From Escherichia coli (GTDB lineage Bacteria > Pseudomonadota > Gammaproteobacteria > Enterobacterales > Enterobacteriaceae), in assembly GCF_003991155.1 (NCBI RefSeq), contig NZ_CP031294.1: a DNA stretch of 64,000 bases, one strand, 5' to 3'. The translations under genes and the position numbers were made by a program. Numbering within the stretch: the stretch's first letter is position 1; the number at the start of each line of letters is the position of its first letter. Below are positions 52,401 to 61,900 of this stretch, one piece after another. The notes under the pieces were generated by a model. It was not told the DNA's origin. It saw only the letters and a program-made list of their open reading frames with translations, and did not search any database.

Positions 52401-53656
<1,256 letters not shown>

Positions 53657-53777: not shown

Positions 53778-56700
53778 ATGACTCATCAGACACACACCAT
53801 TGCTGAATCCAATAACTTTATCGTTCTTGATAAGTACATCAAAGCCGAGCAAACAGGCGACAGCTACCAGAGCGAATCGGACCTGGAACGTGAACTGATT
53901 CAGGATCTGCGGAATCAGGGCTATGAATTTATTTCCGTAAAATCTCAGTCGGCGATGCTGGCCAACGTTCGGGAACAGCTTCAGAGCCTCAATGGTGTGA
54001 TGTTTAATGACAGCGAGTGGCGGCGCTTCACGGAGCAGTATCTGGACAACCCCAGCGATGGTATTCTGGATAAAACCCGTAAAATCCATATCGACTATAT
54101 CTGCGACTTTATTTTTGACGACGGGCGACTTGAGAACATCTATTTGATAGATAAAAAGAATCTCATGCGCAATAAGGTGCAGATTATCCAGCAGTTTGAA
54201 CAGACGGGTTCTCATGCTAACCGTTATGACGTCACGATCCTGGTTAATGGTTTACCGCTGGTGCAAATCGAACTAAAAAAACGCGGGGTGGCGATTCGTG
54301 AGGCTTTCAACCAGATACATCGTTACAGTAAAGAGAGTTTTAACAGCGAAAATTCCCTGTTTAAGTATCTGCAACTGTTTGTCATTTCTAACGGCACCGA
54401 TACCCGTTATTTTGCCAACACGACAAAGCGCGATAAAAACAGTTTTGACTTCACCATGAATTGGGCGAAATCAGACAACACGCTGATTAAAGACCTCAAA
54501 GACTTTACCGCTACCTTTTTCCAGAAACATACTCTGCTGAATGTTCTGGTGAACTACAGCGTTTTTGACAGTAGTCAGACGCTACTGGTGATGCGACCGT
54601 ACCAGATTGCCGCCACCGAGCGCATTCTGTGGAAAATTAAGAGTTCCTTTACAGCGAAGAACTGGTCAAAACCGGAAAGCGGTGGGTATATCTGGCATAC
54701 TACCGGTTCTGGTAAAACCCTCACCAGCTTTAAAGCCGCGCGTCTGGCAACAGAGCTGGACTTTATTGATAAAGTCTTCTTTGTGGTCGACAGGAAAGAC
54801 CTCGATTACCAGACCATGAAGGAATATCAGCGTTTTTCGCCAGACAGCGTCAACGGCTCGGAAAATACCGCAGGCCTTAAACGAAATCTGGATAAGGACG
54901 ATAACAAAATTATCGTCACTACTATTCAGAAACTCAATAACCTGATGAAAGCAGAAAGCGACCTGCCTGTATATAATCAGCAAGTGGTGTTTATATTTGA
55001 TGAATGCCACCGCAGCCAGTTTGGAGAAGCGCAGAAAAACCTGAAGAAGAAATTCAAACGCTATTATCAGTTTGGTTTTACCGGCACCCCTATTTTCCCG
55101 GAAAACGCTTTAGGCTCAGAAACGACCGCCAGCGTATTTGGTCGTGAATTGCATTCGTATGTAATTACCGATGCGATTCGTGATGAAAAAGTGCTCAAAT
55201 TCAAGGTGGACTACAACGATGTGCGGCCACAGTTTAAATCTTTAGAGACAGAAACCGACGAGAAAAAACTGAGTGCGGCTGAAAATCAGCAGGCATTTCT
55301 TCATCCCATGCGTATACAGGAAATTACGCAATATATTCTGAATAACTTCCGCCAGAAGACCCACCGTACTTTCCCAGGTTCCAAAGGCTTTAATGCCATG
55401 CTGGCAGTGAGTAGCGTGGATGCCGCGAAAGCCTATTACGCGACGTTTAAACGGTTACAAGAGGAAGCAGCTAATAAATCGGCTACCTATAAACCGCTGC
55501 GTGTTGCAACAATCTTCTCCTTTGCCGCCAATGAAGAACAAAATGCCATTGGTGAAATTTCCGATGAAACTTTTGATACCAGCGCAATGGACAGCAGTGC
55601 TAAAGAGTTTCTTGACGCTGCAATTCGTGAGTATAACAGCTATTTTAAAACTAACTTCAGCACCGACAGTAACGGTTTTCAGAACTACTATCGTGATTTA
55701 GCCCAACGGGTTAAAAATCAGGATATCGATCTGTTAATTGTCGTTGGGATGTTTTTAACCGGCTTCGACGCTCCAACATTGAACACGCTATTCGTCGATA
55801 AAAACTTGCGTTTTCACGGCCTGATGCAGGCATTCTCCCGTACCAACCGCATTTATGACGCTACTAAAACCTTCGGTAACATCGTCACTTTTCGGGATCT
55901 GGAACGCTCAACCATTGATGCCATAACGCTGTTTGGTGATAAAAATACTAAAAATGTGGTGTTAGAAAAGAGTTATGCTGAGTATATGGAAGGCTTTACA
56001 GATGCTGCCACTGGTGAAGCTAAACGCGGCTTTATGGCAGTAGTTTCAGAACTGGAACAACGGTTCCCTGACCCTGCCAGTATTGAAAGTGAAAAACAGA
56101 AGAAAGACTTCGTAAAACTGTTTGGTGAATACCTGCGTGCCGAGAACATCCTGCAAAACTATGATGAATTTGCCACGCTGAAAGCCCTGCAACAAATCGA
56201 TCTTAGCGATCCTGTTGCGGTAGAAAAATTCAAAGCAGAACATTATGTGGATGATGAAAAGTTCGCTGAATTGCAAACAATTCGTCTCCCTGCTGAACGC
56301 AAGATTCAGGATTATCGTTCTGCCTATAACGATATTCGCGACTGGCAGCGCCGTGAGAAAGAAGCTGAGAAAAAAGAGAAATCAACCACTGACTGGGATG
56401 ACGTAGTTTTTGAGGTCGATTTGCTGAAGTCTCAGGAAATAAACCTGGATTATATCCTTGGACTGATTTTCGAACACAACAGACAAAATAAAGGCAAGGG
56501 CGAAATGATCGAAGAGGTCAAACGCTTAATTCGTTCAAGCCTGGGGAACCGGGCGAAAGAGGGCCTGGTGGTCGATTTTATTCAGCAAACGAACCTGGAT
56601 GATTTACCAGACAAAGCCAGTATCATTGAGGCATTCTTTACGTTTGCTCAACGCGAACAGCAACGTGAAGCAGAAGCATTGATAAAAGAAGAAAATCTCA

Positions 56701-56894
56701 ATGAAGAGGCGGCGAAACGCTATATTCGCACGTCTTTAAAACGCGAATACGCCACCGAAAATGGCACAGAATTAAACGAGACATTACCAAAACTTAGTCC
56801 GTTAAACCCGCAATATAAAACGAAAAAACAGACCGTTTTCCAGAAAATCGTCACGTTTATTGAAAAGTTCAAAGGAGTAGGTGGGCAGATATAG
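53778..56894 (+). CDS. hsdR: Type I restriction enzyme endonuclease/translocase subunit (EcoR124I HsdR-like)
   Basis: 1038 aa; SF2 helicase motifs (TGSGKT, DECHR), N-terminal nuclease domain; sequence recalled as very close to EcoR124I HsdR. Confidence 0.93.
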
Positions 56895-56952
56895 TGTATT
56901 AATCTGAACCAGATCTGGCAGACATCTGTGCAAATTGCAGATAGCTGTCAGA

Positions 56953-57363
56953 TCAAACCATCGTAGGGATGTTTGTATCCACTTTGAACTCAGGTACACC
57001 AACGAACTCTTTAACCTTCATCTGGTAGCCGGTTCTGTCAGTTTTGATGACTTCCTGTTTGCCCTCTATAAACTGCTCACGCCACTCGTCGCGACGGGAA
57101 GCTGGCATGATCAGCAAAACGTTAGTCATATCCGTGACCTTCCTCCAGTACTCGGCCCAAATATTCTGTTTCACCCATTCCAGATCGACTTTATCCAGCC
57201 AAGCTCGATTCAAACGTGAGCGTTCTTCATCTGGTCGATGGTTTAGTCTCAGCAGGCGATTAATCATGTTGTGGCGTTCGTCGCCATAAACGAAGTCGTG
57301 TACCTGATACATGAAGGCGATCTCTTTCTCGCACTCGGCCACGATTTCGTGGATGACATTCAT
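56953..57363 (-). CDS. hypothetical protein
   Basis: 136 aa ORF; heptamer repeat directly upstream of start. Confidence 0.45.
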   Translation of the reverse strand: MNVIHEIVAECEKEIAFMYQVHDFVYGDERHNMINRLLRLNHRPDEERSRLNRAWLDKVDLEWVKQNIWAEYWRKVTDMTNVLLIMPASRRDEWREQFIEGKQEVIKTDRTGYQMKVKEFVGVPEFKVDTNIPTMV

Positions 57364-57370
57364 TTCCTGC

Positions 57371-57398
57371 CGATAGTCGATAGTCGATAGTCGATAGC
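57371..57398. repeat. heptanucleotide tandem repeat (CGATAGT)x4, 8 bp upstream of the 57363 start codon
   Basis: Read directly. Confidence 0.85.
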
Positions 57399-57443
57399 AG
57401 CGTTTGAGTTGGGATCGTCGATGATGGAAAGGGCTGTATTCAT

Positions 57444-57484
57444 AATAGCACCATTAAGAAGTGATTTGTTTAATGGTGCTATTA
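57444..57484. terminator. 14-bp-stem hairpin (aatagcaccattaa...ttaatggtgctatt)
   Basis: Read directly; downstream of gene 57547..58218. Confidence 0.5.
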
Positions 57485-57546
57485 TTTCAAAAATGAAAAG
57501 GTACTAAATAGAAATAAACAGGCAATCCTTCAAATAAAGGCATTGG

Positions 57547-58218
57547 CTAATCATACTTGGAGGTATTTATCACCAGAATTTTGTTTGTATAAATCTTCTT
57601 AATATCCCATGTGACATTACCGGAATACCATTGACCGTTATATACTTGGTTTCCAGTTGCACCTGTCATTGTTACATAGACAGGTCTGTCGTAATCGGTT
57701 CGTCTATAGTTATATACTCCAACCATAGCAGGCATTACCGCACATGGATACCCCATATCTATTGTAAATTGAGGGTCAGAAATAGTGATAAGTTTCGCAT
57801 CAAGGGGCATCATCTCACCGTGATACACCATTGCGCCTGCGCTGTTATACATGGCAATGCCATAGCCAGAATGTGGTAACACCATATCAGAAAAAGCATA
57901 AACTGTTATTGTTCCGGGGCTACCATTTACCTGATGCAATCTGAGAGCATTGTATCCGTTACTATGTTCATGAATAAACATCATGTTCGCCTTATTACTG
58001 CTTTTTATGAAAAAAAAACATGATTTGTTTGATGGGATTGATGTTTGAAAAACAGAACCTTTAGATGTAGACATTGTCCCTTTATTAATCAGATTTTGCG
58101 GAGTAAATTCAGGACTCATCCACAAACTTCCATCTGATTGAGTAATTGACATCCCGAACATAATTATCCCCAGTATGTGTATATGTAAGAACCAAGCCCC
58201 GTATATAAATTTGACCAA
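57547..58218 (-). CDS. hypothetical protein (AT-rich; contains T9 homopolymer on coding strand)
   Basis: 223 aa ORF; overlaps upstream ORF by 55 nt in another frame. Confidence 0.4.
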   Translation of the reverse strand: MVKFIYGAWFLHIHILGIIMFGMSITQSDGSLWMSPEFTPQNLINKGTMSTSKGSVFQTSIPSNKSCFFFIKSSNKANMMFIHEHSNGYNALRLHQVNGSPGTITVYAFSDMVLPHSGYGIAMYNSAGAMVYHGEMMPLDAKLITISDPQFTIDMGYPCAVMPAMVGVYNYRRTDYDRPVYVTMTGATGNQVYNGQWYSGNVTWDIKKIYTNKILVINTSKYD

Positions 58219-58445
58219 CTAACCGTATTTCCATTAATAGTAACATTTGGAACAGGTAAATTGATGTAGTTGTCGTTGTTAAGAGGCATTAATGACCACA
58301 CGGCATGTAGTGATTTACCCGGTGGCGGATTAGAGTACGTCTTAGAGCCTGATGACGCCGTAAATCGATCAAGAAAAAAAATAGGTGTAAGGAAGCCAGT
58401 AACGTTAATTCCTTTATTGTTGTAAATCCCTGTACCGTATGCCAT
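58164..58445 (-). CDS. hypothetical protein (possibly N-terminal part of a frameshifted gene with 57547..58218)
   Basis: 93 aa ORF, AT-rich. Confidence 0.3.
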   Translation of the reverse strand: MAYGTGIYNNKGINVTGFLTPIFFLDRFTASSGSKTYSNPPPGKSLHAVWSLMPLNNDNYINLPVPNVTINGNTVSWSNLYTGLGSYIYTYWG

Positions 58446-58499
58446 TTTTCACCCTTGTTTTTATCAACACAATATGGCCGATCATGCGGCCATATCAGA

Positions 58500-59069
58500 T
58501 CAATTAGAGCTTTGAAAGACTTTGTGTGGTTGTGTTGCGAGGTTATGTCGATGGCTTAACTCACGCATCATGTCTTCAAGGCGACTCTTTGTGTCGTCGA
58601 GTTGGTCGGCCATTGCTCCCAAAAGCTGACGAACGGCCATAGGATCATCGCTGTTTAGTGATGGCATTTTATAACCCGCCTGAGAAGACATAAGATTGAA
58701 CGCAGACATCAACATCGTTAGAGAGGATTTAAGCCCAGCAATTTCACGATCTTTGCTGGCAATAATCGTCTCACTCTTGTTAGTGTCATCAGTTCGTTGA
58801 GTCTCGCTCACCATATCCAAAGTCGCCTGCAACTTATCAGCGCGCTCTTTTTCAGCAAGATAATGAACACCGAAATGATGTGCTAAAGCTACAACCTGAG
58901 TTGGCTCTTCAAAGGTGGACTCAAAATTAAGTGCTGTAACCACTCTCTCAAATATGGAAACGTCTTCTATTCCTCGAAGAATGGCTAACATTTTGACCAG
59001 TTCATTAGCATCCATTTCTTCGAATAAGGCGTTTTGTTCATCAGCTATCGCTTTGCATTTCTTGCACAT
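58500..59069 (-). CDS. hypothetical protein
   Basis: 189 aa; family-2 box upstream. Confidence 0.5.
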   Translation of the reverse strand: MCKKCKAIADEQNALFEEMDANELVKMLAILRGIEDVSIFERVVTALNFESTFEEPTQVVALAHHFGVHYLAEKERADKLQATLDMVSETQRTDDTNKSETIIASKDREIAGLKSSLTMLMSAFNLMSSQAGYKMPSLNSDDPMAVRQLLGAMADQLDDTKSRLEDMMRELSHRHNLATQPHKVFQSSN

Positions 59070-61317: not shown

Positions 61318-61900
61318 ATAAACTCCTGAATCAAGCGCCGCGCCGATTTTTTCCTCGCGCGTGCGCACACGCGTGCGTGTTAATAATTATTAAAATAAAC
61401 AAATTACTTCCCAGAACAGGTTTTTTATAAACCTGAACTGAACGAACGAAGTGAGTGAAGTTCACCTCGAACGAAGTGAGAGGTTGTCTTTTCAGGTAAT
61501 ACTCTCCCAGGGAGGTGAGTATAAAATTCCTCACCAACCTGGTCGTTTCATAACCTGAAAAGCTATGGTCTAAGTCTACTGCCAGCTTAGACTTGGGAAG
61601 TTATGGATGACAGCACCCCAGAACCGAGATCTTCCCACACTTTATGAAGGGGAGTACTGGATTCAACCTCTCGAAACACCCCAGACTCGACAATCATAAA
61701 GTGACCCTTGTCTCTGCTCACTTTGGTTCCCCCTTCCCCGACACCTAAACGGCACCGGTTCTACGCTGGTAGTGAGCTTTTTTAAACCTGACGCCAGTGA
61801 CGCTTACCCCCACCCATCAGGTCGAGTCTCCAGTCTACGACTGGAAACTATCAGATCTTAGCACTTACAATTCACTTTATGAATAGTTTGTACTTATCTA

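Follow-up and report, generated by a model that had tools for sequence, protein, structure and literature searches.

A length-variable heptanucleotide repeat in a truncated phage-plasmid methyltransferase gene of Escherichia coli, probably drifting without a switching function

Introduction

In the Type III mod gene of STEC, a CAGCGAC[n] tract comprises at least 26 units and shows length heterogeneity within populations, and the gene encodes an active enzyme (PMC5909438). Surveys for loci of this type have selected repeats with a unit length not divisible by 3 and with at least three units (PMC5909438/PMC7383803). A different arrangement is described for hmw1A and hmw2A of H. influenzae, where 7-bp repeats in the 5′ UTR/promoter region are reported to tune the transcript level (PMC8262952, PMC12721329).

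Here we describe a heptanucleotide repeat in a stretch of 64,000 nucleotides of E. coli DNA (the window). As with the STEC mod tract, the repeat falls within the ORF of an E. coli gene for an N6-adenine methyltransferase, and its copy number differs between strains. It also resembles the hmw1A/hmw2A repeats in being a heptamer tandem array near a start codon, and that system was the best fit to the preliminary description of this DNA, which had placed the repeat in a spacer between promoter and ribosome-binding site (RBS).

Results

The window and its relatives

The 1.6 kb around the heptamer is 100% identical to plasmid pGF66.1-B (E. coli GF66.1). More than 140 E. coli plasmids of ~110 kb each share 95-99% identity with this region, which is also related to Salmonella phage SSU5 and to the Escherichia phages Cyrano and PhiR41_1. 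From these matches to ~110-kb SSU5-like plasmids and phages, we assign the window to an SSU5-like E. coli phage-plasmid.

According to the PGAP annotation of the identical plasmid, the left part carries hsdS and hsdR (53778-56894, plus strand). After hsdR, the minus strand carries the genes for a 136-aa hypothetical protein (56953-57363), a 204-aa protein (57547-58161) and a 93-aa protein (58164-58445). These are followed, in the same order, by those for a 189-aa protein, a DUF3927 protein, a TerB-like protein, two small proteins and rnhA. The GC content was 0.37-0.39 over positions 57500-58500, as compared with 0.46 for the whole window. Thus, the locus, which had been called AT-rich, is indeed below the window in GC content, but only mildly so.

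The heptamer lies in coding sequence

TRF reported a tandem repeat of CGATAGT (x3.9, 100% match) at 57371-57397. On the minus strand, this corresponds to 3.9 perfect copies of the sense unit ACTATCG, and we refer to it as the 4-copy allele. It was the sole perfect tandem with a period of 4-10 and at least 3.5 copies in the window. When the sequence was dinucleotide-shuffled, any such tandem appeared in only 9 of 200 shuffles, and the mean was 0.045 per window. Thus, the heptamer is real and not a chance occurrence.

The ATG at 57363 on the minus strand (ATG2) is separated from the repeat by 7 nt. The repeat therefore does lie close upstream of this start codon, as the preliminary description stated. 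A further ATG on the same strand (ATG1, 57443-57441) opens an ORF in which the heptamer spans codons 17-25: ATG AAT ACA GCC ... GCT ATC GAC TAT CGA CTA TCG ACT ATC GGC AGG AAA TGA. This frameshifted leader ORF (57360-57443) has 27 codons (MNTALSIIDDPNSNAAIDYRLSTIGRK), and its stop codon TGA (57362-57360) overlaps ATG2 (ATGA). Around the homologous ATG, SSU5 has ...GAT ATC GAC TAT CGG CAG GAA ATG AAC... and is 14 bp shorter than the window. In the SSU5 sequence, ATG1 is in frame with the window's 136-aa ORF. The plasmid p88COLEC-2 carries 7 bp more than the window. This restores the frame, and the product annotated by PGAP is a ‘DNA modification methylase, missing C-terminus’ of 165 aa. In the 2-copy and 5-copy alleles alike, ATG1 reads through into the downstream ORF. 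As judged from these sequence comparisons, the true start of the gene is the ATG at 57443, and the heptamer is coding sequence within the first 30 codons. The tract thus lies inside a DNA methyltransferase ORF, as is the case in phase-variable methyltransferases.

This placement bears on the earlier model, in which the repeat lies between the promoter and the RBS of a gene starting at 57363 and its copy number tunes expression via spacing (cf. hmw1A). PGAP starts the gene at ATG 57363, and the repeat ends just upstream of this codon with an AGGAA before the ATG, as the model would have it. However, in SSU5 and more than 95% of the relatives, translation of the region starts at ATG 57443 and continues without a change of frame into the downstream ORF, and the variation among the relatives alters amino acids while preserving the frame. 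In addition, a consensus scan of the minus strand from 56850 to 58600 detected no sigma-70-like promoter. The AGGAA belongs to the codons CAG GAA and is 1 nt from the ATG, which is a poor SD spacing. The repeat is thus located 3′ of a start codon, in contrast to the non-coding position between promoter and start of the hmw1A type. The claim that copy number alters promoter-RBS spacing was not supported, and we regard the model as very improbable. An intragenic repeat can mimic a promoter-spacer element when the annotation starts the gene at an internal ATG.

The methyltransferase gene is truncated in the window

The intact gene of SSU5 (SSU5_095, ‘DNA methyltransferase’) has the homologue of ATG 57443 as its start codon and encodes 561 aa. 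Along its entire length, the intact protein matched PHROG 6263 (‘DNA methyltransferase’), and its residues 138-295 matched Pfam DUF4942. Its residues ~400-500 contain LEPxAGRGD and MNPPYS, which were aligned to the SAM-binding and NPPY motifs of M.TaqI. This match, from a PDB sequence search, was weak (E=0.1; residues 403-494) and was used for motif placement only.

In protein alignment, the 136-aa ORF from ATG2 (56953-57363, minus strand) corresponded to residues 23 to ~157 of the 561-aa DUF4942/N6-adenine methyltransferase. It keeps approximately the first 20 of the ~158 residues matched by DUF4942, and the whole SAM-binding/NPPY core is absent. In-frame relatives of the truncated gene are tagged ‘missing C-terminus’ by PGAP. 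When two intact-gene plasmids (L039 and L031) were compared with the window by BLAST, the match began at 56956. The homology breakpoint is at 56953-56956, and the stop codon of the 136-aa ORF derives from inserted DNA. No match to the window was found for the left 3 kb of L039, which flanks the intact gene. In the window, hsdR of a type IC (EcoR124-like) R-M cassette is found at 53778-56894 on the plus strand (PGAP; Pfam EcoR124_C etc.). This type IC hsd cassette stands in place of the 3′ 1.2 kb (~two-thirds) of the methyltransferase gene, together with at least three genes further downstream.

From the alignment end at ~residue 157 and the breakpoint at 56956, the window gene can be described as a non-catalytic N-terminal remnant, cut at ~residue 157. 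Without the LEPxAGRGD and NPPY motifs, the window copy does not represent a functional methyltransferase switched by the tract. The locus clearly illustrates how a defence cassette (type IC hsd) can take the place of part of a methyltransferase gene on a phage-plasmid.

The hsdMSR cassette extends left from the breakpoint to ~50800. Truncated and intact arrangements are both common among E. coli SSU5-like plasmids, which suggests that this position is a hotspot for recombination or for defence islands. Hundreds of contigs carry the truncated fragment, and PHROG 16000 is built from such ~158-aa products. The N-terminal fragment may retain residual function. In one record (L048, CP142569.1; 1554-2015, corresponding to ~57050-57100 of the window), a 51-bp perfect tandem duplication (17 aa, IIEGKQEVIKTDRTGYQ) was found inside the truncated fragment, which is a further sign that the remnant tolerates length changes.

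Repeat number varies between isolates

The copy number n was counted with the window set as n=4. SSU5 and 26 of the 27 IMG/VR loci have n=2, and their second unit is often imperfect (ACTACCG). The same number was found in ~170 of the 181 E. coli records that matched a 161-bp probe. The ancestral 2-copy sequence, ATCGACTATCGG, is ordinary coding sequence (I-D-Y-R). Expanded tracts were confined to one local haplotype (GATCCCAACTCAAACGCTGCT...). Thirteen distinct records had expanded alleles, namely n=3 (five records), n=4 (five), n=5 (two) and n=7 (one), and further Logan/ENA contigs had n=4 and n=3. When metagenomes were scanned for further alleles of this haplotype, its 2-copy version included, there were 0 matches.

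The bases after the repeat divide the expanded haplotype into two. The sub-haplotype with GGCAGG..AAT carries n=3, 4 and 5, and that with GTCAGG..AAC carries n=3, 4 and 7. Between L001 (n=4) and L033 (n=3), 0 substitutions were found in 3.4 kb of flank, and the total lengths of the two plasmids are 6 bp apart. Thus, the tract changes faster than point mutations accumulate, and its alleles must have arisen through several independent changes. Since the tracts are 21-49 bp long, well within read lengths, an assembly artefact is unlikely. The number of slippage events (~4 changes) is a minimum because the 3.4-kb flank is mosaic/recombinant; it stands for at least two copy-number changes in each of two tight clades and is not a clean-tree count.

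The comparison of repeat counts across isolates, which the preliminary description had proposed as a check, thus yielded 3, 4, 5 and 7 copies among near-identical plasmids. The tract has a 7-bp unit, not divisible by 3, in 3.9 copies, which is above the three units of the surveys. Its number varies between strains with the gene, yet the great majority of the E. coli records counted above are fixed for the 2-copy form. Slipped-strand mutability of the heptamer is supported by these allele comparisons.

Frame consequences of the copy number

Because 7 is not a multiple of 3, each copy step shifts the frame between ATG 57443 and the gene body. The alleles n=2, 5 and 8 are in frame. When n=4 or 7, a leader ORF (27 or 34 codons, respectively) ends at the TGA overlapping ATG 57363. 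When n=3, the ORF has 58 codons and passes ATG 57363 by 31 codons. Since the window carries the 4-copy allele, the only ORF annotated here is the 136-aa one that begins at the internal ATG.

In principle, such shifts could make the tract a true contingency switch. Slippage would turn the methyltransferase, or its N-terminal domain, ON (n=2, 5, 8) or OFF/short-form (n=3, 4, 7), and the phage-plasmid population would gain epigenetic or anti-restriction heterogeneity, as in phasevarions. The tract matches the survey criteria of PMC5909438/PMC7383803, with a unit that is not a multiple of 3, a position within the 5′ part of an N6-adenine methyltransferase ORF, at least three units and variation between strains. 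There is a heptanucleotide precedent in the E. coli mod gene. Moreover, four alleles occur among near-identical plasmids, and one plasmid, pPK8276, has an intact gene with n=4. The distribution of the alleles, however, speaks against this reading: of the 13 expanded alleles, 12 belong to truncated gene copies that are catalytically dead, and the intact gene is nearly always in the non-repetitive 2-copy form. In-frame alleles (2/13) are not enriched over the neutral expectation of 1/3 (p=0.24). The tracts are also short, with 3-7 units as compared with at least 26 in STEC mod. Thus, we consider a true contingency switch unlikely.

The plasmid pPK8276 is the only one in which an intact gene has an expanded tract, and PGAP calls a 539-aa protein from the internal ATG. 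In a 15-billion-protein collection, the exact intact 561-aa product was found on at least 1000 contigs and the 539-aa product on pPK8276 only, whereas the window's 136-aa product was found on 97 contigs and the in-frame 165-aa product on 14. The intact gene is normally kept in a non-repetitive in-frame state. In pPK8276, the ATGA stop-start overlap of the 4-copy allele could still allow expression. Private variants of the truncated copies had N:S = 4:5, as compared with 2:14 for variants shared with intact copies; this is the direction expected if truncated copies decay, but the difference was not significant (p=0.14).

A broader form of the contingency reading would apply to SSU5-like phage-plasmids in general. 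They would have a heptanucleotide contingency tract at the 5′ end of an orphan N6-adenine methyltransferase, and the window would be a still-slipping relic; we give this proposal little credence. It would also imply a phage-plasmid phasevarion that toggles between full-length enzyme, enzyme shortened via ATGA re-initiation and no enzyme, which seems equally doubtful to us. If the tract did switch in the intact pPK8276, E. coli would have a second methyltransferase under the control of a heptanucleotide repeat, and phage-plasmids their first. If true, this would bear on how phage-plasmids evade or imprint host restriction.

The reading that we prefer is that the heptamer is a slippage hotspot drifting in a dead methyltransferase remnant, and that the T9 tract and the gene pair beside it are ordinary. 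This is probable, although well short of certain. The 2-copy coding sequence would have expanded to at least three copies in one E. coli sub-lineage. The expanded tract would then have become prone to replication slippage, with 7-bp units gained or lost. Slipped-strand mispairing is the presumed source of the copy changes, which would be selectively neutral in the truncated background. The heptamer in the window is most likely without function. Since the gene is truncated and has no methyltransferase domain, a working phase switch in the window is unlikely. Thus, what stands of the proposed slipped-strand phase-variable locus is a heptamer that is slippage-mutable, as its variable counts indicate; a working switch does not follow from this. 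An SSR may be real and variable between isolates without operating as a switch.

The T9 tract and the neighbouring gene pair

The gene for the 204-aa protein (57547-58161, minus strand) is a moron-type gene of PHROG 425. It contains a T9 tract at 58010-58018 (A9 on the plus strand). The 93-aa gene (58164-58445, minus strand; PHROG 557) is a separate gene, and its T8 tract (58374-58381) encodes I-F-F-L. The preliminary description was thus correct that a 9-nt homopolymer is present in the neighbouring gene, and it had counted this run towards phase variation. With nine residues, the run meets the mononucleotide length criterion of surveys, and T9 (and T8) could be phase-variable homopolymers that switch the surface-related 204-aa and 93-aa genes. 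Two records from a prophage subfamily (61% identical) each lack 1 nt in the equivalent T tracts and have N-terminally shortened gene calls, which would be in line with such switching. However, one of the two records is from an assembly with many fragmented genes, and neither belongs to the T9 lineage. Because at least one of the assemblies is error-prone, these deletions are ambiguous.

Homopolymer runs of this length or longer arise by chance: the window contains two of at least 9, as compared with a mean of 2.55 in the shuffles. Thus, T9 is unremarkable. It reads TTT TTT TTT and encodes Phe49-51 of the sequence KSCFFF, which is conserved family-wide and kept down to ~50% identity. At the T9 position, PhiR41_1 has T6 and JenP1 has no run of 5 or more T. 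In both, FFF is kept, and the T tract is interrupted by synonymous TTC. No gaps were detected in the 899-bp two-gene block in 23/23 fetched loci. Likewise, no T9 length change was detected in 60/60 evenly sampled E. coli records, a sample that overlaps the 23 loci. The protein accession WP_000467662.1 recurs in most plasmids. In these samples, T9 is neither variable in length nor conserved as a tract, in the manner of a homopolymer contingency locus. These results do not support a phase-variable run, and homopolymer switching of the two genes is most improbable. As a contingency tract, T9 was rejected for its invariance and its codon-level conservation.

In the ORF list, the 204-aa gene is taken back to the farthest TTG (58218), whereas PGAP and the homologues start at ATG 58161. 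Two nt separate this ATG from the TAA that ends the 93-aa gene (TAATTATG), and PhiR41_1 and JenP1 share the start. Therefore, the upstream ORF at 58164-58445 exists, but its supposed frame overlap is an artefact of the TTG start, and the two genes are adjacent.

The 93-aa and 204-aa ORFs might instead be fused by programmed -1 frameshifting at TCA_AAT_TTA (~58200). There is a heptamer of the X_XXY_YYZ type, A_AAT_TTA, in the 0 frame of the 93-aa gene, and from it the -1 frame is open into the 204-aa ORF. In JenP1, however, the same amino acids are encoded by TCG_AAC_TTA, which is not slippery. Moreover, it is only in the 93-aa frame that the changes within the overlap are synonymous, and the stop-start spacer differs in PhiR41_1. 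A programmed -1 pair would have a conserved slippery site and constraint on both frames, and neither was found here. The fusion is extremely unlikely, and -1 frameshifting at A_AAT_TTA was rejected since the slippery site is absent from JenP1.

No Pfam (E<=0.01) or NCBIfam match was found for the 204-aa and 93-aa proteins. The PHROG names for the pair are ‘membrane associated’ and ‘outer membrane protein’. The name ‘cysteine peptidase family C39 domain-containing’, which PGAP gives inconsistently to the 204-aa protein, has no Pfam match at the same threshold to go with it. The two genes (PHROG 557 and 425) form a mobile two-gene moron pair. Besides the window, L041 and L043-L047 were compared for it. 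In lambdoid E. coli prophages, the pair is located between the tail-tip gene J and lom, and the commonest protein variant of the prophage pair has 905 member sequences. In Nonagvirus JenP1, the pair is located between tail genes in reverse orientation. We see nothing unusual in the T9 tract or the gene pair: the former represents three conserved Phe codons under AT-rich codon usage, and the latter consists of two closely spaced genes.

Other sequence features around the heptamer

A perfect hairpin (57442-57485, minus strand) has a 16-bp stem and a 12-nt loop, with a fold of -21 kcal/mol (z = -6.0). Its 3′ arm includes the A and U of ATG1, the methyltransferase start codon. A double change from A:T to T:A between haplotypes keeps the pairing, and a C-to-T change in PhiR41_1 gives G:U. 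No significant hairpin was found at the equivalent position of SSU5 (z = +1). Possible roles of the hairpin are those of a translational occluder or an operator palindrome; alternatively, it may mark where the inserted moron block ends.

A poly-A run just upstream of rnhA (~61340-61352, minus strand) is A6 in the window, A5 in L039, A7 in L035, A8 in L040 and G+A7 in SSU5. It adjoins a conserved alternating purine/pyrimidine stretch, ACGCACGCGTGTGCGCACGCGCGAGG (61353-61378). PGAP annotates rnhA as ‘frameshifted’ in the window-identical plasmid and in most relatives, and as intact in L035, L039 and L040. The rnhA poly-A is more variable than T9, and sequencing error may contribute to this.

In hsdS, a 12-bp repeat, CTTACCGCTGAG, which encodes TAEL, is found at 52949-52988 (plus strand), 4.4 kb from the heptamer. 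The window has 3 copies, and pGF66.1-B has 2 copies and is otherwise identical over the following ~9.5 kb. Judged by their spans, type IC hsdS genes across E. coli have 2, 3 and 4 copies. We take this repeat to be a spacer-length specificity switch of the EcoR124I/EcoR124II type, presumably functional as well as polymorphic.

Discussion

The heptamer can be set beside four described systems. It shares with STEC mod the features given at the outset, but the differences are considerable. The STEC tract has ~26 or more units, whereas the tract here has 3-7 units and belongs to a non-Type-III gene of the DUF4942 family on a phage-plasmid. The STEC gene is intact and active, whereas the gene here is truncated before the catalytic domain in all but one of the 13 expanded alleles.

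The hmw1A/hmw2A repeats differ in another respect. They are reported to act from the 5′ UTR/promoter region, whereas the repeat here is translated and lies 3′ of the real start codon, so that it would act, if at all, by frameshift.

SSU5_095 is the orthologous gene, with the same start codon and N-terminus and the same neighbours (RNase H, TerB-like, DUF3927). SSU5 has the non-expanded 2-copy sequence and an intact gene, whereas the window has an additional 14 bp, a frameshift and the truncation by the hsd cassette. In the ~8.5 kb of SSU5 that were compared (L003), the moron block is missing, and a different gene, SSU5_094, lies upstream. Both an intact gene and the moron block are present in the SSU5-like plasmids pPK8276 and L039 and in phage Cyrano.

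The fourth system is found in the same window. The switch between EcoR124I and EcoR124II by the 12-bp (TAEL) repeat of hsdS was reportedly described by Price et al. in 1989. Like the heptamer, the EcoR124-type hsdS repeat is a short tandem repeat in an R-M gene, and its copy number differs between otherwise identical plasmids. In contrast to the heptamer, its unit is a multiple of 3 and alters the target spacer length, not the reading frame. The hsdS repeat and the heptamer are separate elements.
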